11,116 bases of DNA from Candidatus Firestoneibacteriota bacterium (GCA_043822305.1 JBDRBU010000062.1:1-11116), one strand, 5' to 3'. Positions 1 through 11,116 are shown, numbered from the stretch's first letter. Notes: generated from the letters alone by a model not told the origin. Translations and numbers: made by a program.

Positions 1-587
1 ACAAAGTATATTTAGATGCATATTACATAGATAAATACGAGGTAACTTTTGAGCAGTATGATAAATTCTGTGAAGCAACAAAGAGAGAGAAACCTTCTGA
101 TGAGGGTTGGGGTAGAGGTAATATGCCAGTAATAAATGTAAGTTGGAATGATGCATCAGCGTATGCAAACTGGGCAGGGAAACGGCTTCCAACAGAAGCA
201 GAATGGGAAAAGGCATGCAGAGCAGGAAGTAGCAGTAAATATTGCTTTGAAGATAATAAAAGTGAACTTGGTGATTATGCATGGTATTATAGTAATTCAG
301 GTTCAAAGACACATCCAGCAGGAGAAAAGAAGCCAAACAAATGGGGAATATATGATATGCATGGTAATGTCTGGGAGTGGTGCAGTGACTGGTATGATGG
401 TGGCTATTATGCAAATAGTCATAAGGATAATCCTAAAGGACTTGATACAGGTACTTCTAAAGTTCTTCGTGGCGGCTCGTGGCACAACATTGCTAACAAT
501 TGCAGGTCCGCCCTTCGCAACTACAACTCGCCGGACCTTCGCTACGTCGATGTTGGGTTTCGTTGCGTGTTGGGTGGTGCAAAGTAG
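1..587 (+). CDS. FGE-sulfatase (SUMF1-like, CLec-fold) domain protein, 5'-truncated by the window; probable DGR target 1
   Basis: The frame is open from position 3 (KVYLDAYYIDKYEVTFEQY...), so the ATG at 123 is internal. Family motifs present: PVINVSWNDA, KRLPTEAEWEKACRAG, PNKWGIYDMHGNVWEWCSDWY, RGGSW, GFRC. It lacks the catalytic Cys pair of true FGE enzymes after RGGS. Confidence 0.93.
   Translation, partial: KVYLDAYYIDKYEVTFEQYDKFCEATKREKPSDEGWGRGNMPVINVSWNDASAYANWAGKRLPTEAEWEKACRAGSSSKYCFEDNKSELGDYAWYYSNSGSKTHPAGEKKPNKWGIYDMHGNVWEWCSDWYDGGYYANSHKDNPKGLDTGTSKVLRGGSWHNIANNCRSALRNYNSPDLRYVDVGFRCVLGGAK
459..587 (+). repeat. DGR variable region VR1 (paralogue of 4640-4768)
   Basis: Ungapped 129-nt match to 4640-4768 with 18 mismatches, 17 at codon positions 1/2, mostly in NNC/NNT codons. 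About 55% GC (70/126 over 462-587) inside an AT-rich gene. Confidence 0.85.
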
Positions 588-623
588 TTGAATATCTGAA
601 AATCTGGCAATCTGAATATCTGG
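588..623 (+). repeat. Conserved post-VR element with 4 tandem 8-mers (nnnATCTG); candidate DGR cis-acting/IMH region
   Basis: AATATCTG AAAATCTG GCAATCTG AATATCTG at 591-622; 35/36 identical to 4769-4804. Confidence 0.7.
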
Positions 624-710
624 GAAAAAGAAGTGAAAAAAATAAAGAAAGAAAATAAAGTAAGAAACACATAAAAAAGAAAGAAAAATAGAAATTTCGT
701 CAGCGTAACT

Positions 711-1116
711 TTGGTGGATATGGAATATAAAAAGTGTGAATTAATAATATTTACTAAAACGTATGATTTTATTTTATGGGCAATGGCTCATACGACAAAA
801 TTTCCAAAATCGTCAAGGTTTTCAATTTCAGCAAGAATAGAGAATAAATTATTGGATTTTATAGAAATGATACTTATAGCAAATAGGCAGAGAAATAAAC
901 TTGAAAAATTGTGTTATGCGGATGGAATTCTTGAACAAATTCGTATTTTGTTTAGATTGAGCAAAGATATGAAATTTATTAGTTTGAATTCATACGAATA
1001 TGCAGGTAAACCCTGTTAGAGACCTTCGGTCTCTTCTATTTTCTTTACCACCAACTCCGTTGGTGGCTTTCTCTAACAGGGTAAAGCAATTAATAGAGAT
1101 TGGTAAACTTTTATGA
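711..1116 (+). pseudogene. avd: DGR accessory variability determinant (bAvd-like four-helix bundle), interrupted by an insertion and C-terminally truncated
   Basis: ELIIFTKTYDFILW...TTKFPKSSRFSISARIENKLLDFIEMILIAN...LEQIRILFRLSKDMKFISLNSYEYAG resembles Avd-family proteins. The stop at 1017-1019 lies inside the insert. Removing 76 nt (1008-1083) restores ...YEYAGKQLIEIGKLL*, and the usual GGW tail is absent. Start is TTG 711 or ATG 720. Confidence 0.82.
1010..1082. mobile_element. 73-bp MITE-like palindromic element inserted in avd
   Basis: Perfect 13-bp terminal inverted repeats ACCCTGTTAGAGA (1010-1022) / TCTCTAACAGGGT (1070-1082). Internal hairpins AGAGACC-TTC-GGTCTCT (1018-1034) and CCACCAAC-TCC-GTTGGTGG (1048-1066). 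TAAA occurs at 1007-1010 and 1082-1085. The avd frame resumes right after it. Confidence 0.8.
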
Positions 1117-3353
1117 GAAACAAAAAAAATAAGATTTTATTTCTATGTTTGCTGTTGGTTAGTTTTAATTGCTGTTTTACTTCTTTTTCTTCTGCTGTTA
1201 CCATAAAAAATGTAAGTTCTCCCGGCAAAATTGATGCCGGTATATCACAAAAATACAGGGCGAAAAAGAAAGTAATAACTGCTATCAGCTATGTTATTGT
1301 CTCTGTAATTGGGTTCTATGTTCTATTTATAATATATAAGAATAAGAAAAAAAGAGCGCACCTTTTAGCCACTCTACCAGACGAAATAAGAAAAAAAATA
1401 AATTCTTCTCTTTACCAAGAAGCATACAACTTATTTGTCAAATACAGAAAACTTGATGGCAATTTAATAAAATTTTCACCGCAAGAACTTTTCAACATTT
1501 ATTACAGAAATGGTCGTATAGAAACGCTGCTTAAAATAAACCTTGGTAATAAATATTTCTGCGGATTTTGTAAACAACTGGTCAAAGAAAAGGATTGGAT
1601 AGTTGCGTATCAATTTTATAAACAATTCAAGGAGTTCGATGGTGAACCAGAAAAAGAGTTTACAATTGATGAAATACTGGATATTTATTTAAATACGGAC
1701 CAGGTGCATAAATTAAAAGAAGAAAAATTTTCTGTCGGAACTAAACTGATATTAGTAAGTAAACTTACTCTTCTTGAAAAGTCAACAGAGGCATTCTTTT
1801 TGATTAAAGATAAAGAAAGTATAATAAAAAGTCCCATTTCATCAGAGGAATTTGAACTGTTCTATGTGATATATCTGAAGTGTGATAAACTTAATGAGTT
1901 AATTGATATTGTAACCCGGAGAGATGTTAAATTACATAATCCAGATATTTATAGTTTAATGGCAAACAGGTTAATACAAAAAAAAGATTATAAGTCTGCC
2001 TTATCTATCTTAAATATAAAACAAAAACGCTACCCTGAAGAAATAAACGATGATGATTATAAACATTTGATTTATGTATCAGAAAAATCAAACCGTCTTG
2101 GAGAAATTCTACCCGATATGTTGCCGGATAAATACTGGGATAAATTTTTAATGTTACTGAAGAACAAGGGTATGGATGAAGAAATTAAAGAATTTGTTTC
2201 AAAAATACTAACCACAGACCAAAAAGAATTAATACAGTGGCTTAAAATTTGTCTAAAATATGAAATTTATGACCATGTAATGACACATATTAAAAATGAA
2301 AATTTTAAGGAATTTAATAATACTGACAATGGCAAACAATTGTTAGAGATATATTATCAGGAGGGAGCCAACTTAGAACAAATAGGCAAAATAGATATTG
2401 CTCGAGAGATATATGAGAAATTTATCAACGAACTTGGTTCTTACAAAGATGTTAATTCAAGGTATCTCCGGATAACTTCAGTTAGACCACAGAATGTTAA
2501 TGTTTCACCAGAATCTATGCGTGGAGGGACGGTTGTCGGTGGAACGCAGATGGGTGAAACATATTATATCGGCAAGAAATATGAGTTTGTCCGTGAAATA
2601 GGCAGGGGCGGCATGGGTATTGTCTATGAAGCAGTGAATAAGGAAATACATAAAACAGTAGCAATAAAGAAGATGAAAGAAGAATTAGCAATAAATGTTC
2701 GTGAAAAAAAGAGATTTATGGAAGAGGCACGGCGTGTAGCGGAGTTACATCATCCGAATATAGTTGATATATATGACATGTTTGAGGAAGCAGGTAATAT
2801 GTATCTGGTATTTGAGTATATTAATGGCGACACAGTAGATATGCTATTGAGCAAAAAAACTAGATTAAGTTTTGATGAAACAATGAAGATAGTAATGTCT
2901 GTTTGTGAGGCATTAAAATATGCACACAATAAGCAGGTGGTGCACCGGGATTTAAAGCCATCAAACATAATGGTATCAGTTGATGGTTGGGTAAAGGTAA
3001 TGGATTTTGGAATAGCTCGAGAACTAAAAGATACTCTTTCACGACTGACAGGTAAAGACACTTCTGGCACACTTGCATATATGTCGACTGAACAGCATCT
3101 CGGGGAATATGATAAAAGGTCAGATATTTATTCAGTTGGGGTAACCTTATATGAAATGCTGTCAGGAGAATTACCATTTAAAGGTCCTGATTTTCTTGCA
3201 CAAAAAGAGCGTATGGTGTTTCACCTGCTACCCGAACTTGTTCCAGAACTACCAAAACAAATTGATGGAATAATAAACAAATGTCTTCAAGCAGATAAAG
3301 AGAAAAGGTATAAAATAGTAGAAGAATTAATTGGTCAAATTAGCAAACTATGA
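1113..3353 (+). CDS. Membrane-anchored Hanks-type Ser/Thr protein kinase (signal peptide, TM helix, helical-repeat region, C-terminal kinase domain), 746 aa
   Basis: Kinase motifs GRGGMG, VAIKK, FMEEAR, HRDLKPSN, DFG, GTLAYMSTE, SDIYSVG and subdomain XI Arg (EKRY), from about nt 2580. Hydrophobic N-terminus, and TM segment VITAISYVIVSVIGFYVLFIIY followed by KNKKKR. Confidence 0.95.
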   Translation: MRNKKNKILFLCLLLVSFNCCFTSFSSAVTIKNVSSPGKIDAGISQKYRAKKKVITAISYVIVSVIGFYVLFIIYKNKKKRAHLLATLPDEIRKKINSSLYQEAYNLFVKYRKLDGNLIKFSPQELFNIYYRNGRIETLLKINLGNKYFCGFCKQLVKEKDWIVAYQFYKQFKEFDGEPEKEFTIDEILDIYLNTDQVHKLKEEKFSVGTKLILVSKLTLLEKSTEAFFLIKDKESIIKSPISSEEFELFYVIYLKCDKLNELIDIVTRRDVKLHNPDIYSLMANRLIQKKDYKSALSILNIKQKRYPEEINDDDYKHLIYVSEKSNRLGEILPDMLPDKYWDKFLMLLKNKGMDEEIKEFVSKILTTDQKELIQWLKICLKYEIYDHVMTHIKNENFKEFNNTDNGKQLLEIYYQEGANLEQIGKIDIAREIYEKFINELGSYKDVNSRYLRITSVRPQNVNVSPESMRGGTVVGGTQMGETYYIGKKYEFVREIGRGGMGIVYEAVNKEIHKTVAIKKMKEELAINVREKKRFMEEARRVAELHHPNIVDIYDMFEEAGNMYLVFEYINGDTVDMLLSKKTRLSFDETMKIVMSVCEALKYAHNKQVVHRDLKPSNIMVSVDGWVKVMDFGIARELKDTLSRLTGKDTSGTLAYMSTEQHLGEYDKRSDIYSVGVTLYEMLSGELPFKGPDFLAQKERMVFHLLPELVPELPKQIDGIINKCLQADKEKRYKIVEELIGQISKL

Positions 3354-3424
3354 CGGTGAAATTTTATAGGTCATCAATCATCTTATTTTTAATGTTTTCT
3401 ATGGTAAATAAAAAAGTGTAGGAT

Positions 3425-4768
3425 ATGAAAAATAAAATGTTTTTATTGGTATATTTAATCTGTCAACTCATAACAACTGTATATGCCCAGTCAAGAATAG
3501 AGAATGTTCATTTTGAACAGGACAACAAAGGACTTGTGCATATTTATTATGAACTTATAAACCCTTATGATGATAGATTCGAGATTACACTGAAACTCTC
3601 AGAAGAAGGTGGTAATACATTTATACTTATACCGCGAGCACTGCAAGGTGATGTTGGCGATGATGTCACGGGTAGTGGCAAAAAACACATTATCTGGGAT
3701 GTAGAGAAAGATTATCCAAAACTTAAGGGCGAAAATTTTGTTTTTTTGATAGAAGCCGAAGACAAAATGTATGAGTTCTATTACAAAAAGGGCTTGAAAT
3801 CAGCAGAGAAAGGCATGTGGGACGAAGCGATAAACTCATATCAAATAGCGTTGAAGTATAAGCCGAATGATAAGGATGCAGAAGATGGGATGAAGTCTGT
3901 TCAGATGAAAAAGCAGCAAAAGATAAGCAGTTATATTTCAAATGGAAAGAAATATACGAATGAAGGAAAATATTCAGAAGCAGTATTGGAATTTGAAAAA
4001 GCAAAGGAAATGGGAGCAGCAGGAGAAGTAGAAAAATTATTAGCGGGAGCGAAAAAGATGAATACTCCACATGAAGGCACCGGTAAGTATGCGGATATGA
4101 TATACATTTCAGCAGGAGAGTTTGAGATGGGAAGTAATGATTATGATAATGAAAAGCCTGTTCACAAGGTATATTTAGATGCATATTACATAGATAAATA
4201 CGAAGTAACCTTTGAGCAGTATGATAAATTCCGTGAAGCAACAAACAGAGAAAAACCTTCTGACAGTGGTTGGGGTAGAGGTAAAATGCCTGTAATAAAT
4301 GTTAGTTGGAATGATGCCGTAGCGTATGCAGAATGGGCAGGGAAAAGGCTTCCGACAGAAGCAGAATGGGAAAAAGCATGCAGGGCAGGAAGTAGTGGTA
4401 AATATTGCTTTGGAGATAGTGAATCAGAATTAGGTGATTATGCATGGTCATGGTATGGTAGTAATTCCGGTAGTAAGACACATGCAGTAGGGCAAAAGAA
4501 GCCGAACAAATGGGGGCTATATGATATGCATGGAAATGTATGGGAATGGTGCAGTGATTGGTATGATGATAAATATTATGAGGTAGTCGCCGGACTTGGG
4601 CAGGCGAATAATCCTAAAGGACCTAATACAGGCACTTATAAAGTTCTTCGTGGCGGCTCGTGGTACAACTATGCTCTCAATTGCAGGTCTGCCCTTCGCA
4701 TCAACTTCACGCCGGGCAGTCGCGACGACAATGTTGGGTTTCGTTGCGTGTTGAGTGGTGCAAAGTAG
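3425..4768 (+). CDS. Exported protein: signal peptide, beta-rich domain, TPR-like repeats, C-terminal FGE-sulfatase/CLec domain; probable DGR target 2, 447 aa
   Basis: Signal peptide MKNKMFLLVYLICQLITTVYA-Q. TPR-like segments YYKKG...WDEAINSYQIALKYKPND and YISNG...YSEAVLEFEKA. FGE motifs GEFEMGS, EKPVHKV, RLPTEAEWE, DMHGNVWEW, RGGSW, GFRC. Confidence 0.93.
   Translation: MKNKMFLLVYLICQLITTVYAQSRIENVHFEQDNKGLVHIYYELINPYDDRFEITLKLSEEGGNTFILIPRALQGDVGDDVTGSGKKHIIWDVEKDYPKLKGENFVFLIEAEDKMYEFYYKKGLKSAEKGMWDEAINSYQIALKYKPNDKDAEDGMKSVQMKKQQKISSYISNGKKYTNEGKYSEAVLEFEKAKEMGAAGEVEKLLAGAKKMNTPHEGTGKYADMIYISAGEFEMGSNDYDNEKPVHKVYLDAYYIDKYEVTFEQYDKFREATNREKPSDSGWGRGKMPVINVSWNDAVAYAEWAGKRLPTEAEWEKACRAGSSGKYCFGDSESELGDYAWSWYGSNSGSKTHAVGQKKPNKWGLYDMHGNVWEWCSDWYDDKYYEVVAGLGQANNPKGPNTGTYKVLRGGSWYNYALNCRSALRINFTPGSRDDNVGFRCVLSGAK
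4640..4768 (+). repeat. DGR variable region VR2 (paralogue of 459-587)
   Basis: Same scaffold as VR1. 13 amino-acid changes against one synonymous change across 43 codons. Confidence 0.85.
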
Positions 4769-4804
4769 TTGAATATCTGATAATCTGGCAATCTGAATAT
4801 CTGG
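4769..4804 (+). repeat. Second copy of the post-VR ATCTG tandem element
   Basis: TTG AATATCTG ATAATCTG GCAATCTG AATATCTG G; one mismatch to 588-623. Confidence 0.7.
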
Positions 4805-4891
4805 AAAAGTTGAAGGAAGTGAAAGAAGTGAATGAAGTGGAAAAAGTGAAGAAAAAAAGTAAAGAAAGAAAAGAAAAAAAAGAAGGTAAAG
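4805..4891 (+). repeat. Purine-rich low-complexity spacer with GAAGTGAA-like repeats
   Basis: GAAGTGAAA GAAGTGAAT GAAGTGGAA AAAGTGAAG followed by A/G runs. A similar A-rich tract follows the first target (624-692). Confidence 0.55.
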
Positions 4892-6151
4892 ATGAAAGGA
4901 AATAAAACAATCAATCTAATGTTTTTTTGTTTTCTTTTAGTATTTGCTTCATCTTTCAGTAATTTAAATTTTTGTTTTGCGCAGAATATTAAAGAAAGCA
5001 ATACAGGAGGTAATCTCCAAACCCAAAAATTTTGTGTTTTCTGTGGCAAATCAATTGAAAAGGACGCAAAAATTTGCATTCATTGTGGTGAAAAACAACC
5101 TGAAGAAGTAAGCGAGAAAAAATCATTATTATTGGAACAACCATTATTAACTAAAGAACAAGAACTGAAAAAACCTGTATCATTACCACCGGGAAAGTCT
5201 TTCCGTGAAAATGTTTCTTCGTATTATTTAATAGGGGGAATTTTAAGTTTGGTTTTAATCTTATCCGTAGTGTTTCTATTTGTTAGAAAACAAAAAAGAG
5301 TTGATACTGGCACTATAATAAGATCTCCCGAAGAAGATGGAGTAAAAAAATACGAGTTTAAAAGAGAAATTCTTCCCAGGGGCAATATGGGTGTTGTTTA
5401 TGAAGCAGTTAACAAAAAACTCAAGAAAAAAGTTGCAATTAAAAAGATGAGAGAAGAACTTAAAATTAATCTAAGGGAAAAAGAAAAGTTCCTCCAGGAA
5501 GCAAGGACAGTAGCACAATTGCATCATCCTAATATTTAATATTGTTGATATTTATGATATTCTCGAAGAAAAAGATGAAATTTATCTTGTTTTTGAATAT
5601 GTGGAGGGTAAAACAATTGATAAACTCTTGGATGAACAAAGAAAAGTAGATGTAAACAAAACAATAAAGATAATGGAGCAGATTTGTGAAGCAATGAATT
5701 ATGCTCATAACGAACATGTAGTTCATCGAGATTTAAAACCAGCAAATATCAGATTTACTCCGGATGCCAGGATTAAAATAATGGATTTTGGAATTGCACG
5801 GGTAGCGATAGATACATTAACAGCTTTAACAGGTAAAGGAGATGCTTCTGGAACATTAAGATATATGTCTACTGAACAACATTCAGGCAGTAGTGATTTT
5901 CGTTCGGATATTTACAGTTTAGGGGTGATTTTTTATGAGCTTCTCTCCGGTAAAGTACCTTTTAAAGGACCTGATTTTATTACCCAGAAGAGAGAGATGG
6001 TTTATACTCCAATAAGGGAAATTTGTCCCCAATTACAAGAGGAAGTTGAGGTAATAATCAGAAAATGTCTTCAGCCGGATAAAGATATCAAACAGTTTTA
6101 GAACTTAAAGAAGATATATTAAAATTATTTGACAAGAGGGAAGAACTGTGA
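4892..6151 (+). pseudogene. Second membrane Ser/Thr kinase (signal peptide, zinc ribbon, TM, kinase), inactivated by two frameshifts
   Basis: ORFs 4892-5539 and 5601-6101 are one gene. Removing one copy of the tandem TAATATT (5530-5543) gives HHPNIVDIYDILEEKDEIYLVFEYVEG. A second shift near 6083 hides RYQTVLELKEDILKLFDKREEL* (stop 6149-6151). HRDLKPAN, DFG and GTLRYMSTE are present. Confidence 0.88.
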
Positions 6152-6157
6152 TATACT
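6129..6157 (+). promoter_or_regulatory. Sigma70-type promoter of the abiE operon
   Basis: TTGACA (6129-6134), 17-bp spacer, TATACT (6152-6157), with extended -10 TG at 6149-6150; 37 nt upstream of ATG 6195. Confidence 0.82.
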
Positions 6158-6166
6158 CATATCAGT

Positions 6167-6188
6167 AATACCCATTGCCGTGGGTATT
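6167..6188. promoter_or_regulatory. Inverted repeat, candidate AbiEi operator or 5' UTR hairpin
   Basis: AATACCCA-TTGCCG-TGGGTATT, perfect 8-bp arms between the -10 box and the start codon. AbiEi antitoxins are known to autorepress through promoter inverted repeats. Confidence 0.6.
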
Positions 6189-6194
6189 TAGTAT

Positions 6195-6821
6195 ATGGAT
6201 GAAAAAAACCTAATTACATATGCCAGAGTAAATAAAAGGTATGTCTTTTCCGTGAAAGAAGCAAAAATGGTATTTAGTCAATCAAGCGGAAAGACAGTGG
6301 ATAATCTATTGCAAAAGTATGAAAAAAAAGGAATCATTGAACGTCTCAAAAAAGGTCTATATAGTGTTAAATTTCCAGAAGGCGGTCCGACGATCCCGGA
6401 CTTATTTTTAGCAAACAGAATGTATGAACCTTCTTATGTTTCCCTTGAGACAGCGCTCTCATTTTACAATATCATTCCTGAGGAAACGGCTGAAGTCACA
6501 TCGGTAACGACAGGGCAGACAAAGGTATTTAAAAACAAACAGGGAGTGTTTTGGTATTTTTCTGTAAAAAAGGAAGCATTCTTTGGATACATACTTTTGA
6601 ATCTTGAAGGTTTTAAAGTAAATATTGCAGAGAAGGAGAAAGCACTTGTGGATTATATTTATCTTAAAATGAGGCGAGGAGAGGAAATTGATGTTATGGA
6701 AGACAGGTTTGATACCGATATCTTAAAGCAACTTAATTGGGAAAAAGTAAAACAATATGCCAAACTTTACGGAGTGTTCGTTGTATCTCGCGTTGAAAAG
6801 CTAAAAAAGGAGAATTTATGA
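6195..6821 (+). CDS. abiEi: Type IV toxin-antitoxin antitoxin, AbiEi family (N-terminal wHTH), 208 aa
   Basis: wHTH-like GIIERLKKGLY, then PSYVSLETALSFYNIIPE, VTSVT and AEKEKALVDYIY. ATGA overlap with the downstream nucleotidyltransferase gene. Confidence 0.85.
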   Translation: MDEKNLITYARVNKRYVFSVKEAKMVFSQSSGKTVDNLLQKYEKKGIIERLKKGLYSVKFPEGGPTIPDLFLANRMYEPSYVSLETALSFYNIIPEETAEVTSVTTGQTKVFKNKQGVFWYFSVKKEAFFGYILLNLEGFKVNIAEKEKALVDYIYLKMRRGEEIDVMEDRFDTDILKQLNWEKVKQYAKLYGVFVVSRVEKLKKENL

Positions 6822-7630
6822 TCACAATGGAATCGTTGCTGGATGAAGCTGAAAAGATGAAACTGCCATTAAATAAAAAACGCGCAATACTAAGAGAATA
6901 TATTCAGTCATTAACTTTAAATTATATATTTAAAAGCGAATACGGTAAAAAATTATTTTTTGCCGGAGGAACGGCGCTGAGATTTGTTTATAACATCCCG
7001 AGGTTTTCTCAAGATTTGGATTTCAACGCAAAAGGGCTTGGTTATGGCGAGTTTAGCGGGATGATTGTCCTGCTTAAAGATAAATTGGATAATGAAGGTT
7101 TTAATGTTGAATACACAAGAAAGGATATTTATGATGTGTTATCGGCAAAGATTACTTTTAAAGAAGTAATGAAGCAATTTGGTTTAACGGACAAGATCGG
7201 GTTGGACATAATGATTAAGATAGAGACAAATGTACCAAAGTGGAAGATCAAGCATGAGGTTGTTGCTGTCTCAAAATTCGGACAGTTGTTTACCGCTCAA
7301 ATCATGGATAAAGGATCGTTCCTGGCGGAAAAATCGCATGCTTTTATCCATAGATGCAGGGGTCGAGATGTTTACGATATTATTTTTTTACTAAAGAATA
7401 AATTTCCGTTAGATCCTGAAATGTTTAAAAACAAGGAAATTCAGGGAGAGCCGAAAGAAGCCCTTCTAAAAAAGTTTAAAGGATTGAAAAAAGCAAATAT
7501 GAAGTCTTTGGTTAATCAGGTGATGCCGTTTTTATTTAAGGAAGAAGAAATTGAATATGTTAAGAAAGCAGTTTTTTATGGTCCGGAATTGCTGAAACAA
7601 TATGATACATCGACACAAAAAAATGGGTAA
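6818..7630 (+). CDS. abiEii: Nucleotidyltransferase toxin, AbiEii/AbiGii family, 270 aa
   Basis: Family motifs LREYIQ, FAGGTALR...RFSQDLDF, IKIE, LAEK...R.RGRDVYD. Translationally coupled to abiEi. Confidence 0.88.
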   Translation: MITMESLLDEAEKMKLPLNKKRAILREYIQSLTLNYIFKSEYGKKLFFAGGTALRFVYNIPRFSQDLDFNAKGLGYGEFSGMIVLLKDKLDNEGFNVEYTRKDIYDVLSAKITFKEVMKQFGLTDKIGLDIMIKIETNVPKWKIKHEVVAVSKFGQLFTAQIMDKGSFLAEKSHAFIHRCRGRDVYDIIFLLKNKFPLDPEMFKNKEIQGEPKEALLKKFKGLKKANMKSLVNQVMPFLFKEEEIEYVKKAVFYGPELLKQYDTSTQKNG

Positions 7631-7646
7631 AAATAGGAGGTGCAGG

Positions 7647-9140
7647 ATGAAGAAAATTAAAGTATTTTTTTGTTTCATATTTCTATTAGCATTAACAAAT
7701 ATAAGTTGTAGTCCTTTTCAACTAATTGGAGGATTATTCCCTGATGAAAAAGAAGTGCAAAAGAAAGAAGAAAAAGAAAGACGGGAAAGGTTAGCATGGG
7801 AAAAAGCGGATAAGGAAGTAAATGAAAAATTAAAGGATCCGAATTATTATTGTGAGAAAGCACTTGCTGAATATGCTGAATTTGATGGTAATTCGTGGAA
7901 AACGATAGAGGAAGCAAAGAAAAGAGCAAGATTAGAATTGGCAAAAAGGCTTAAAGTAAGAGTAATAAATACTGTTAGTGATACTATTAAAAAAGATAAC
8001 AAATTAGTTGAGGAAAAATTTGAAAGCAAGACAACCACCTATGTTGATGCTTTATTAGAGAATGTTAAAGTTGAAGAATTTGAAAAATATCGTGAAAAAG
8101 ACCAGGTCACGGCTATTGCTTACCTTCCTGTAAGGATATATAAAGATAAGGTAGAAGCAGATCTTAAATCCAAGAAAATATCTATTAGTACGCCGTTTGA
8201 ACAAGGTTTGGAAGCAATGAAACAAAAAAATTATGGGCAGGCACTTACTCAATTTATTAATAGTCGTGCGAAATTGGTAGATAGTTTTAGTGGTTTGCTA
8301 AATGAAGATATAGATGAGGACGGAAAAACAGAAGATGTAGGAGGTATACTATCGGCAAGGATAAGTGAGATTGTAAATAATTTAGAGTTGAAAAGCCTTG
8401 ATGATAAAATATTTTTTGATAGTGATGGAAAAATAACAAAAAAACCAACTGTATTTGTGTCTTATAGGGTAGATAGTAATAATAGACAACCTGTTTCCGG
8501 TATCCCTTTAAAAGTAGCATTTATTAAGGGAGAAGGAAAAATTTCAGAGGTACCTTTAAAAACAAGTGGACAAGGGGATTTGGAAATACCCATTGAAAAC
8601 ATTAATGTGGATTCTTCAACCAAGGAAGTAACGGTTAATGTTGAGATAGACGGAGAAAAAATAGGTTTAGAAAAAACATTCTATTTACCTATTTGCAGGA
8701 TAGAGATGTATAAAAAGAAGGCAGTAGCGTACTGTGTTAATTTCTTTAGTGATGGGTTAAAAACACATCCAGCATCCTGGGTTGATGAAATAAAAGGAAT
8801 GATAATAGATTATGGATTTGGAGTTGAAGAATACGATATAAAAGAGAAAGATATTAGCACAACTACAATAAATGATATAACCAAAACAAATGTTGATTAT
8901 TTCATTTATGTTATGATGACTTCTGAAAGCAAGAAAGACCCTTATGATATGTATAATGCCATGCTTACAAGTAAGGCATCAATATATTCTTTTCCAGAAG
9001 AGAAAATATATAAGACCATTGAAGGTATTTCAGCAAGCGGGTATAGCACAACAGGGTTAAATGCCGGATACGATGCCTTAGGTAAAGTAAAAAACACTTT
9101 AATGGATAAAATAAAAGCAGTAATCAAGGATTTAAAGTAG
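7647..9140 (+). CDS. Predicted lipoprotein with LPP20-like N-terminal domain, about 497 aa
   Basis: The likely start is ATG 7647, which has AGGAGG at 7635-7640, rather than 7602. Lipoprotein-type signal MKKIKVFFCFIFLLALTNIS-C. EEAKKRARLELAKRLKVRV resembles LPP20-type domains. The domain call is tentative. Confidence 0.65.
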   Translation: MKKIKVFFCFIFLLALTNISCSPFQLIGGLFPDEKEVQKKEEKERRERLAWEKADKEVNEKLKDPNYYCEKALAEYAEFDGNSWKTIEEAKKRARLELAKRLKVRVINTVSDTIKKDNKLVEEKFESKTTTYVDALLENVKVEEFEKYREKDQVTAIAYLPVRIYKDKVEADLKSKKISISTPFEQGLEAMKQKNYGQALTQFINSRAKLVDSFSGLLNEDIDEDGKTEDVGGILSARISEIVNNLELKSLDDKIFFDSDGKITKKPTVFVSYRVDSNNRQPVSGIPLKVAFIKGEGKISEVPLKTSGQGDLEIPIENINVDSSTKEVTVNVEIDGEKIGLEKTFYLPICRIEMYKKKAVAYCVNFFSDGLKTHPASWVDEIKGMIIDYGFGVEEYDIKEKDISTTTINDITKTNVDYFIYVMMTSESKKDPYDMYNAMLTSKASIYSFPEEKIYKTIEGISASGYSTTGLNAGYDALGKVKNTLMDKIKAVIKDLK

Positions 9141-9192
9141 TTACCTGATTCATCGGGCATAATATATGGTGCCAAATAAATTGGGCAACTAC
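9137..9192. repeat. Inverted doublet of GTAG-family REP-like sequences
   Basis: GTAGTTACCTGATTCATCGGGCA (9137-9159) and the reverse complement of 9170-9192, GTAGTTGCCCAATTTATTTGGCA, match at 17/23. Each is GTAG plus an imperfect palindrome; 10-nt spacer. Confidence 0.7.
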
Positions 9193-9214
9193 AATACCGG
9201 GAGGATATGTATCT

Positions 9215-11116
9215 ATGAATAGAATTGTAAAATATCTACTATTGGTTATTATGGTTTTGTGCGTAGGGGTGCTTATTTATATCTATAGATTTATAAATTA
9301 TCCCTTTGAGATAAAACCTTATGAAGAATCAATTAAATTACTTGTTACAGATGTTATTTATAAATGCGAAAAAAAAGGATGGAAAGGAACTATTTCCGAA
9401 ATTAAATCTATTAAAGGTCCTGTCACTGATGATTATCTTGATAGTGTATTAGTTCCTGAAATTACTGTTAAAATTCTTGAAAGCGAGAAAAAAGTACTGA
9501 CTTTTATTATACCTCCCGATGAATACCAGCAGCGTATAAAAGAGTTAAAAAAGCTGTTAACTGATAAGGGTGTGCCTGAAAACGAGGTAATAAAAACTAT
9601 AATGGAAAGAACAAAAAATGCAAAATACAAAGCCGATTATGATATCGAAATAAGTTGGAGTTTATTTAATAAAGAGAAACAGCACATTCAAATAATATTT
9701 AAGGTAAGCAAAGAGGAACCGATAGAATCACACGAAATTTTTACGTATCCTATATTTGAACAAAAGTATAATAAAAAAATGTGTGATTATAAGTTGACTC
9801 ACAAAATAACACTTGGTGTATTTTGTTTGGCATTTTTGGCTTTTATTAGTAGTTGGATAATTATGTTTATCAAAGGAAAACTTGTTGATATGGGAATTAC
9901 AAAAGATAAACTTGAAGATTATTTAAGAGGGGGACATTTTTTAGCTGCTGAATCTTTGGTTAATCAAACATTAAACGCTTTACCAAACAATACTGATTTA
10001 CTGGCGTTTAAGGAAAGATTAATGATAGTAACGAAAAGTAATCCCAGAAGGGCGGATGAAGCGTATATCAGGTATATTAATATAATGATGAAATTAAAAC
10101 AACAAGTTCGTTTGACAAAAAAAGAATTTGAGAACTTTAAAAAATTACCACAGTACCTTGAATTACCGGAAATTACCGAAGCAGTAGCAAAATACGAAAA
10201 GCATATAAGATTACATGATCTGATTAATCAGTTAGAAGGTGATACTAAAAATATAAAAAAGTTAATAGAAAGCGGAGATTTAAGTAAAGCTAAAACTGAA
10301 AGTCAATCGTTATTAAAGAGTAGTGAGATGACTGAATATGAAAGGACAGCAAAAGTTTTTGTAGCGAGCAATCAAGATAATGTTTTATTATTACCTTCGG
10401 GAGAGACAGGATTGGCATCCGGTGAAGGACTTGCAGATTACAGAGAAAAGGTCGGCAATTTTAGTGAAGAAATAGCAAAAAGGGGAAAAGAAAGTAAAGA
10501 AATGTTTGAAGAGGCGAAAAACTTTTTCAAAAACCTTGATATTGAAAGCATGGAAAATGTTTTGCAAAAAGTAGTAAAAATTAATAAGGATTTTAAAGAG
10601 GCAGAAGACATTCTTGATAGTATAAGAAAATCAAAAAACACAGACAAACTTTGTTTAGTTTCAAAACAAACAAGTAAAAAGGTGTATATGTTAAAAAATG
10701 ATATAATCACTTTTGGATGCAAAAAAGATGATTATATGCCGGATGTGAATATAAATAACCCAAGAATTAGCCGAAAACATTTAAAACTTTGCATTATAGA
10801 AAATAATGTGATTGCTGAAGATGACAGTTCAGCTAATGGTACATATTATGGATCTGATAAAATAACAAAAATGCAATTAGAAGACGGAGATATACTGGAT
10901 TTAGCTCATTCATATAAAATAGTTATTCATATTTTACGAGGCAGCGAGAATGTTTCATCAACCATGGTTGATGAAACTATGACTGAACAAGTATACTTAA
11001 ACAGACAATCGGGTTTAAAAGGTACAAAAGTAGGAGGCTTGTTTATTGAATGTGATGATAGATATGTAATTGTGATCTTAGATATTGTGCCTATGGCATT
11101 TACAAAAGTAGGAATA
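9215..11116 (+). CDS. Two-TM membrane protein with cytoplasmic helical region and FHA domain; 3'-truncated by the window (at least 634 aa; absent from the ORF track)
   Basis: GGAGG at 9200-9204, ATG 9215, and no stop in manual translation to the window end. TM1 IVKYLLLVIMVLCVGVLIYIY; TM2 ITLGVFCLAFLAFISSWIIMFI. FHA-like IITFGC...PDVNINNPRISRKH...EDDSSANGTY...LEDGDILDL at about 10703-10903. Confidence 0.85.
   Translation, partial: MNRIVKYLLLVIMVLCVGVLIYIYRFINYPFEIKPYEESIKLLVTDVIYKCEKKGWKGTISEIKSIKGPVTDDYLDSVLVPEITVKILESEKKVLTFIIPPDEYQQRIKELKKLLTDKGVPENEVIKTIMERTKNAKYKADYDIEISWSLFNKEKQHIQIIFKVSKEEPIESHEIFTYPIFEQKYNKKMCDYKLTHKITLGVFCLAFLAFISSWIIMFIKGKLVDMGITKDKLEDYLRGGHFLAAESLVNQTLNALPNNTDLLAFKERLMIVTKSNPRRADEAYIRYINIMMKLKQQVRLTKKEFENFKKLPQYLELPEITEAVAKYEKHIRLHDLINQLEGDTKNIKKLIESGDLSKAKTESQSLLKSSEMTEYERTAKVFVASNQDNVLLLPSGETGLASGEGLADYREKVGNFSEEIAKRGKESKEMFEEAKNFFKNLDIESMENVLQKVVKINKDFKEAEDILDSIRKSKNTDKLCLVSKQTSKKVYMLKNDIITFGCKKDDYMPDVNINNPRISRKHLKLCIIENNVIAEDDSSANGTYYGSDKITKMQLEDGDILDLAHSYKIVIHILRGSENVSSTMVDETMTEQVYLNRQSGLKGTKVGGLFIECDDRYVIVILDIVPMAFTKVGI

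Follow-up and report, generated by a model that had tools for sequence, protein, structure and literature searches.

A diversity-generating retroelement with three FGE-sulfatase targets nested in a membrane kinase-FHA island of a Candidatus Firestoneibacteriota bacterium

The stretch of DNA analyzed here (the window) is the entire contig C62 of a Candidatus Firestoneibacteriota bacterium (GCA_043822305.1, JBDRBU010000062.1:1-11116; 11,116 nt), on which every real gene lies on the + strand. Together with the neighboring contig C65 (L019), it was shown to carry a complete diversity-generating retroelement (DGR), consisting of Avd, a template repeat (TR) and a reverse transcriptase (RT), which is predicted to diversify three paralogous targets (T1, T2 and T3) with an FGE-sulfatase domain of the C-type lectin (CLec) fold. 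Comparison with related genomes showed that the DGR and its targets are, as judged from gene order, nested in a conserved accessory island. The order in this island is LPP20-like lipoproteins, an exported WD40 protein, a Zn-ribbon anchor, membrane Hanks kinases, an LPP20-like lipoprotein and an FHA protein with two transmembrane (TM) segments. By analogy with a known signaling system we tentatively propose, at somewhat less than an even chance, that the variable FGE proteins may form the input layer of an envelope kinase-FHA module. The genome (G000) was assembled to 2.15 Mb in 125 contigs, is 97% complete and has a GC content of 0.316.

A complete DGR on two adjoining contigs

The end of C65 and the start of C62 share 89 nt that are exactly identical, and the FGE reading frame and protein domain run on uninterrupted from C65 into C62. 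Because of the exact overlap and the continuous frame, a single chromosomal locus of ~18 kb is the most parsimonious arrangement of the two contigs. On C65 the order is an LPP20-like lipoprotein (LPP20a), a small lipoprotein (lipoB), an exported WD40 protein, T3, avd1, TR, RT and the 5' part of T1. Genes of the window either overlap or are spaced by 72-124 nt. The DGR and its targets comprise the following features (C65 coordinates are marked as such; all others refer to the window).

C65 4634-4742: TR, 109 nt with 29 adenines and 13 AAY codons
C65 4931-5947: RT, RVT_1 match of 94.8 bits against a cut-off of 29.6
C65: avd1, intact, NCBIfam DivGenRetAVD match of 108.1 bits against a cut-off of 80
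C65 4046-4157: variable repeat (VR) 3 of T3, 17 substitutions at template adenines and 1 elsewhere
C65 5944-6927: T1, 5' part, overlapping C62 by 89 nt
1-587, +: T1, 3' part (open reading frame (ORF) 3-587), Pfam FGE-sulfatase, E = 8e-55
463-571, +: VR1 of T1, 12 substitutions at template adenines and 1 elsewhere
3425-4768, +: T2, 447 aa, with a signal-peptide-like N-terminus, a beta domain, TPR_2 (E = 1e-6) and FGE-sulfatase (E = 8e-64)
4644-4752, +: VR2 of T2, 13 substitutions at template adenines and 0 elsewhere
585-625 and 4766-4806, +, and C65 4171-4211: post-VR element, ~40 nt right after the stop codons, ~95% conserved across the three targets

The RT is the sole RVT_1 match in G000, and LGNLTSQ and YVDD, which we take to be RT motifs of diagnostic value, are visible in its translation. 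Template adenines account for 42 of the 44 substitutions between the TR and the VRs, although they make up only 29 of its 109 positions. An earlier interpretation of the window by itself (the sequence-only reading) had labeled both targets of the window as VR-bearing; the TR found on C65 and the substitution patterns of VR1 and VR2 bear this out. VR3 differs from the TR by a 3-nt insertion plus one G-to-T change, which would mean either that it was altered after the last templated replacement or that an indel is tolerated.

All three VRs stop 16 nt short of the target stop codons. The post-VR element that follows holds the direct repeat TGAATATCTG two times, and folding revealed no hairpin in it that beat shuffled sequence (z -0.2 to +0.2). 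Purine-rich GAA/AAG low-complexity tracts (621-663 and 4825-4885; repeat families D5, D6 and D9) lie downstream of the post-VR element of T1 and T2. The closest related DGRs, including L114, have RTs that are 61-69% identical. A related DGR in another genome (L115, G101:C52; RT 58-59% identical) has two long targets, at 7181-9172 and 11861-13885, whose N-terminal halves look caspase-like by eye and whose last ~250 residues are identical.

Mosaic targets and the island anchor

Whole T1 consists of a Zn-ribbon, a TM, a coiled coil/TPR region and the FGE-sulfatase domain (CLec fold), and T3 of a Zn-ribbon, a helical region, a TM and the FGE domain. T1 and T2 share 84-89% nucleotide identity across ~620 nt plus ~40 nt beyond the stop codon; T1 corresponds to a T2-type TPR-FGE part placed behind a Zn-ribbon and TM segment that is nearly identical to that of T3. 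By these alignments the targets are mosaics. Neither kinase of the window has an FGE match, and none of the targets has a Pkinase match.

At the syntenic position, a related genome (G007) encodes a tail-anchored Zn-ribbon protein of 191 residues, whose TM occupies residues 168-186; the N-terminal part of T3 (residues 1-89) shares 54% identity with it. Because of this identity and the matching position, T3 is by sequence an island anchor protein with a variable FGE ectodomain added behind the TM. When T3 residues 1-140 were compared with 5.8 billion proteins, only T3 and T1 of G000 itself were found among proteins of 226-721 residues.

The best solved relative of T2 is a variable protein of Treponema denticola, the DGR target TvpA (2y3c, E = 5e-39). 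T2 orthologues with the same N-terminal domain occur in L114 and in G207, a genome from another phylum sample. Because the combination of signal peptide and beta domain recurs in the L114 target and in G207, T2 looks like the native target type of its DGR lineage. By their predicted segments, the three targets are directed outward from the cytoplasmic membrane: T3 and T1 would be anchored by one TM, with the Zn-ribbon in the cytoplasm, and T2 would be secreted by means of its signal peptide.

Kinases, lipoprotein and FHA protein

Two kinase genes, a lipoprotein gene and an FHA gene accompany the targets in the window.

1113-3353, +: kinase 1, 746 aa, Pkinase, E = 2e-59, 201.7 bits
4892-6101, +: kinase 2, with a hydrophobic N-terminus, a Zn-ribbon, a TM and a kinase domain, in two ORFs (4892-5539 and 5601-6101)
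7602-9140, +: LPP20-like lipoprotein (Lipo512), 512 aa, start perhaps at Met16 (7647)
9215-11116, +: two-TM FHA protein, open at the 3' end of the contig, FHA match of 36.6 bits against a cut-off of 20.7

Kinase 1 and kinase 2 are the sole Pkinase matches above the cut-off in G000. A genome-wide profile search likewise placed the sole FHA match and every FGE match of G000 on C62/C65. Kinase 1 comprises a signal-peptide-like segment, a TM, a helical cytoplasmic region of ~400 residues and a Hanks kinase domain, in which VAIK, HRDLKPSN and DFG are present. Its hydrophobic segments span residues 8-26 and 55-73, leaving ~28 residues between them. Residues 242-746 are 45% identical to a 1057-residue TPR-kinase of G007, the best orthologue of kinase 1. 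This orthologue has a TPR ectodomain of 170 residues, and another kinase of G007 has a WD40 ectodomain of ~100 residues. Kinase 2 matches the Pkinase profile at positions 5-60 and 80-248 and its catalytic motifs are present. The kinase domains of the two are 71-79% identical in nucleotide blocks.

The ORFs, the Pfam matches and the nucleotide repeats agree with the sequence-only reading that a VR-bearing CLec gene followed by a kinase gene occurs twice on the same strand. They also agree with its description of kinase 1 as nearly devoid of an ectodomain, of T2 as an exported protein with TPR-like repeats, and of a lipoprotein and a two-TM FHA protein following downstream on the same strand.

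Complex prediction for kinase 1 (residues 76-489) and T3 (residues 1-122), with two-row alignments, gave a score of 0.00 against a mark of 0.32, which is neutral on binding. Assignment of the kinases to PD-T4-6 or mad6 was rejected, as the PADLOC matches span the generic kinase domain only.

The LPP20 match of Lipo512 (E = 0.001, 19.9 bits) lies under the cut-off of 25.9 bits, and LPP20a of C65 scored 21.1 bits. The neighbors of Lipo512 in the ESM Atlas are LPP20/FlgO/DUF4384 clusters (score 0.91-0.96), with LPP20 in 17-90% of their members. In the FHA protein, a TM (hydrophobic segment at residues 4-22) is followed by an ectodomain of ~170 residues, a second TM (residues 194-212), a helical cytoplasmic region and the FHA domain, which contains S-x-x-H and N-G-T motifs. 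The protein is about 46-47% identical to its orthologue in G007. A model of the ectodomain, built from a two-row alignment, had a mean predicted local distance difference test score (pLDDT) of 48, too poor for a structure search, and its structural neighbors in the Atlas were uninformative (TM-score 0.18-0.28).

The island in related genomes

G007 belongs to the same order as G000 and to another family, and is 87% complete. Its island (G007:C266; L018/L020) lies on one 27-kb contig and encodes, in order, LPP20a, lipoB, the WD40 protein, the 191-residue Zn-ribbon protein, a Zn-ribbon kinase, a trypsin-like peptidase, the lipoprotein, the FHA protein, a double Zn-ribbon protein and the TPR-kinase. 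G000 and G007 are collinear, with identities of 55% for LPP20a, 54% for lipoB, 44% for the WD40 protein and 48% for the lipoprotein. Further upstream, G007 encodes two TIG-caspase (Peptidase_C14) proteins, a DUF4384 lipoprotein and a kinase with two exported WD40 repeats. In its set of parts, the G007 island resembles published bacterial conflict systems.

The FHA protein is rare. In the phylum sample of G000 it was found in three of 99 genomes, namely G000, G007 and, as a partial match on a 1764-nt contig, G080. In the phylum of G099 (Elusimicrobiota), 9 of the 401 sampled genomes had a match at E <= 1e-10, four of them near full length. A Lipo512 homologue adjoins the FHA gene in all six further loci examined, and a kinase of the island clade is adjacent in four; in the two loci where it is absent, 16-17 kb were covered. 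With G000 and G007 included, the lipoprotein-FHA pair is present in 8/8 loci and the adjacent kinase in 6/8. All island-linked kinases fall into a single clade (support 96/93), outside which lie two other kinases, of G207 and G485. A metagenome scan with the FHA alignment returned one locus (L106), which has the ORF layout of the G007 contig and adds no new case.

FGE genes and island genes meet again in G207. Contig C2 (L129) of this genome carries LPP20a, lipoB, the lipoprotein and the FHA gene, then a kinase remnant of 53 residues, an interrupted ATPase gene and, ~1.3 kb from the FHA gene and kinase remnant, a T2 orthologue cut off by the contig end. The predicted ATPase gene (L129 1065-2032) is split into two ORFs; as it stands between kinase remnant and T2 orthologue, decay is seen here, too, at the same junction. 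Contig C38 opens with an FGE 3' end, behind which lie a lipoB-like gene, genes for two small membrane proteins and a gene for a Zn-ribbon kinase from the island clade. Two FGE 3' ends of G207, with identical flanks and scattered internal differences, look like a pair of VRs and share a G000-like post-stop sequence; no RT was found in G207. In G485 an FGE gene lies 1.4 kb from a kinase that is divergently oriented and falls outside the island clade.

Relics and insertions in the window

The window further contains the remains of a second avd gene, a small insert and an AbiE pair.

711-1113, +: avd2 relic, consisting of an ORF (711-1019), an insert and leftover avd sequence (1081-1113)
1010-1082: 73-nt insert in avd2, with perfect inverted repeats of 11 nt at its termini, a pair of GC-rich hairpins and GTAAA on either side
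6195-6821, +: AbiEi antitoxin, PADLOC, E = 5e-45
6818-7630, +: AbiEii toxin, PADLOC, E = 6e-42; Pfam AbiEii, E = 1e-17

The ORF of avd2 matches bAvd (E = 3e-14) and scores 80.0 bits with NCBIfam DivGenRetAVD, exactly at the cut-off of 80. It is 91% identical to avd1 at the nucleotide level, carries a +1 frameshift (1-nt insertion) and is interrupted by the insert, and its truncated 3' end directly abuts the ATG of kinase 1. An avd gene had been placed between the first target and its kinase by the sequence-only reading; it is present there as a broken relic, and the intact copy is avd1 on C65. The 73-nt insert has one full-length copy in the assembly and looks like a miniature inverted-repeat element, and its hairpins score as terminator-like sites.

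AbiEi and AbiEii share a 4-nt overlap and are, by their profile matches, a type IV toxin-antitoxin/abortive-infection pair inserted between kinase 2 and the lipoprotein. The matching position of the G007 island has no AbiE counterpart. Of the promoter-like sites in the window, the best one is just 5' of AbiEi, at 6129-6157 (sigma-70-like TTGACA-17-TATACT, 11/12 match, TG).

Comparison with known systems

The closest working analogue is TagR(FGE)-TagQ-PpkA-Fha1, the threonine-phosphorylation pathway of the Pseudomonas aeruginosa H1 type VI secretion system (H1-T6SS), in which the FGE-sulfatase domain of TagR is proposed to bind the periplasmic domain of PpkA, the outer-membrane lipoprotein TagQ stabilizes TagR and, downstream, the phosphorylation is read by the FHA protein Fha1 (PMC13713981). 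The TagQ/TagR/PpkA/PppA/Fha1 genes resemble our locus in that a separate exported FGE protein, a lipoprotein, a membrane Hanks kinase and an FHA protein are encoded together. In contrast to the targets described here, TagR is not known to undergo DGR diversification, and PpkA has a folded periplasmic domain where kinase 1 has ~28 residues. Moreover, the FHA protein of our locus has two TMs, and G000 has neither a PP2C_2 nor a T6SS sheath match.

Among the multidomain DGR targets of cyanobacteria, kinase-CLec fusions are the most common type (PMC7517822), and targets with a Ser/Thr kinase fused to a CLec/FGE domain also occur at DGR loci of Thiohalocapsa (PMC10907252). These targets share with our locus the combination of a DGR-diversified FGE/CLec domain with a Hanks-type kinase, and several paralogous targets per TR. 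Here, however, the two are separate polypeptides with ORFs 72-124 nt apart; the kinase domain is C-terminal behind an anchor of its own, and the variable domains, on targets with a Zn-ribbon or a signal peptide, face outward. The split of receptor and kinase that the sequence-only reading had set beside such fusions is therefore not their simple fission, given the kinase domain behind its own TM and a Zn-ribbon in the targets where the fusions have the kinase.

DGRs have also been linked to conflict systems, or putative antigen sensors, of multicellular bacteria (Kaur et al., eLife 2020, PMC7159879; Dore et al., PNAS 2024, PMC10907252), which include FGE-type (FGS) sensors, WD40/TPR, caspase/trypsin and kinases, and sporadically FHA (PMC7159879). 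FGE sensors with WD40/TPR and kinases are likewise found here, and the G007 island adds caspase-like and trypsin-like peptidases. Unlike those systems, our locus has no detected STAND or MoxR NTPase, vWA or adaptor (EAD) domain; it is envelope-facing and lipoprotein-rich, and its host genome is small (2.1 Mb).

TvpA of Treponema denticola is an exported FGE-type CLec target, and its DGR serves several paralogous targets. The fold, the export and the multiple targets per DGR are as in G000, and we know of no kinase/FHA island described around TvpA.

As far as the excerpts of the literature searched go, no link is described between DGRs and TagR, nor a DGR that feeds a split TagR-like kinase/FHA cascade. 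The sequence-only reading had left open whether the arrangement is new. Within those excerpts this holds for the split link between DGR target, kinase and FHA protein, while fused kinase-CLec DGR targets and DGR-linked conflict systems are already known.

Possible coupling of the DGR to the kinase-FHA module

If the variable FGE proteins do form the input layer, a periplasmic or surface ligand would bind to the variable FGE domain, and its binding would alter the activity of kinase 1. Because kinase 1 has no ectodomain of its own, the signal would be relayed through the membrane-anchored T1 and T3, or through the ectodomains of the lipoprotein and the FHA protein. The FHA protein would then read the resulting phosphothreonine marks. 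Envelope-stress or invader sensing, as in a conflict system, would be the most likely class of role. In G000 the module is, by its sequence, partly decayed, as kinase 2 is frameshifted and an Arg of the FHA domain is replaced by Cys. The full form of this proposal must be called doubtful. It holds that the DGR is wired into an envelope Ser/Thr-phosphorylation pathway, with hypervariable FGE/CLec ectodomains on the pathway's own anchor (T3 and T1) plus a secreted copy (T2). These would form a split, TagR-like repertoire that can be re-randomized at 13 AAY codons and signals through an ectodomain-less kinase to a membrane FHA protein.

What speaks for the split receptor-kinase module of the sequence-only reading are genuine DGR targets, a kinase 1 nearly devoid of an ectodomain, kinase, FHA and FGE genes in one locus, T3 built on the island anchor, the recurrence in G207 and the precedent of TagR/PpkA/Fha1.

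A number of observations weigh against it. In G007 the island stands free of the DGR: no FGE-sulfatase match was found genome-wide in this 87% complete genome, and the G000 RT as query returned no DGR-type RT. An FGE gene lies on the island contig in 2/8 cases, and 6/8 islands are without one. The two positive cases, G000 and G207, may share their arrangement by descent or transfer and would then not be independent. Conversely, no kinase or FHA gene was found near DGRs with related RTs (0/9 loci; three in G101, four in G099 and two in G485) within flanks of 5.8-20 kb. Among the 79 closest FGE loci of species-representative genomes, a kinase is present in four, of which three are fused and one adjacent, and no FHA gene was found with an insensitive detector; the kinase and FHA detectors were home-made hidden Markov models from five and two sequences. 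The same 79 loci have an RT in two cases and Avd in two, so these are mostly non-DGR FGE genes with little bearing on DGR targets. The neighborhood survey that the sequence-only reading had suggested thus gave a divided answer: the backbone is collinear in G007 and an FGE gene beside the island recurs in G207, while most islands lack FGE and the related DGRs lack kinase and FHA.

Further points against coupling come from the locus itself. In kinase 2, a tandem duplication of 7 nt (AATATTT/AATATTG, 5527-5540) within the stretch that encodes HHPNIVD shifts the reading frame, which could mark a real pseudogene or a consensus variant. In the FHA domain, residues 501-502 (window 10715-10720) read G-C-K, where Arg (x-R-K/R) is present in 7/8 orthologues; the Cys presumably occupies the position of the conserved phosphothreonine-contacting Arg. 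With the avd2 relic, the 73-nt insert and the AbiE pair, these are signs of decay and of an insertion hot-spot. The 97% complete genome contains no VipB/TssC (T6SS sheath) match and no match to PP2C_2, the one phosphatase family searched. A lost ectodomain of kinase 1 was also sought in the TPR region of T1/T2, and the idea was dropped, as the similarity to the G007 kinase ectodomain is only generic (22-24 residues, pairwise E = 5e-4 to 4e-3).

The strongest alternative is that the elements are co-located and uncoupled, an autonomous TvpA-like DGR system having landed and duplicated in an insertion-prone island, with the kinases, lipoproteins and FHA protein as an older, separate module. We consider this quite possible, though with the balance tilted against it. 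G007 has the whole island but neither FGE nor DGR, 6/8 islands are free of FGE, the related DGRs stand without kinases, and the architecture of T2 (signal peptide, beta domain and FGE) is, per L114, native to the DGR lineage. The locus has also acquired the AbiE pair and a small inverted-repeat element, and the FGE domains have a GC content of 0.39-0.42, above that of the island genes (0.30-0.32) and of the genome (0.316). Such co-location would nevertheless have to account for the use of the island's Zn-ribbon/TM anchor by T3 and T1, which requires that a fusion arose precisely in frame at the syntenic position and was then kept. It would also have to account for FGE genes again lying next to island-clade kinases in G207, and for all kinase, FHA and FGE genes of G000 falling into one same-strand cluster with gaps of 72-124 nt.

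It is unlikely, in our judgement, that the locus is only a decaying remnant, in which an association that was once functional or accidental is losing its signaling arm and at most the DGR targets are still under selection. The frameshift of kinase 2, the destroyed avd2, the Cys of the FHA domain (unique among the eight orthologues), the insertion and the non-adenine change in VR3, the missing PP2C_2 match and the kinase remnant of 53 residues next to the FHA gene of G207 all fit such decay. On the other hand, kinase 1, the three targets, avd1, the RT, the lipoprotein and, up to the contig end, the FHA ORF are intact, VR2 has no non-adenine change, and in a metagenome-assembled genome both the frameshift and the Cys may stem from the assembly or its consensus.

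An assembly artefact, with C65 not adjoining C62 or the twofold target-kinase unit mis-joined across the near-identical FGE repeats, is very improbable: both contigs do end exactly where the repeated FGE segment begins (repeat D1 has its first base at window position 1), and contigs of G207 stop at a similar kind of site, but the 89-nt overlap is exact while the T2 copy of that segment is not identical to the T1 copy, frame and domain continue across the join, and both target-kinase units lie in one contig, with kinases that have diverged (51% amino acid identity) and differ in their N-termini.

Significance

Sequence comparison indicates that the nesting of the DGR in the island and the fusion of its targets to the island anchor are real, and the case for a signaling link is circumstantial. 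DGR targets are usually seen as adhesins or single-polypeptide sensors. If the proposed coupling is true, hypervariable recognition outside the cytoplasmic membrane would be handed to a separate kinase/FHA module, giving a programmable extracellular sensor that feeds a phosphorylation cascade. DGR-diversified CLec sensors would then be joined with TagR-PpkA-Fha envelope signaling, two fields that are unconnected in the excerpts of the literature searched. If it is false, the locus would still offer a clean, complete DGR with three targets in a small, AT-rich genome, as well as a useful negative example against inferring function from adjacency. The comparison of G000 with G007 points to one route by which a new DGR target may arise, namely a tail-anchored island protein that gains a variable ectodomain in frame behind its TM.

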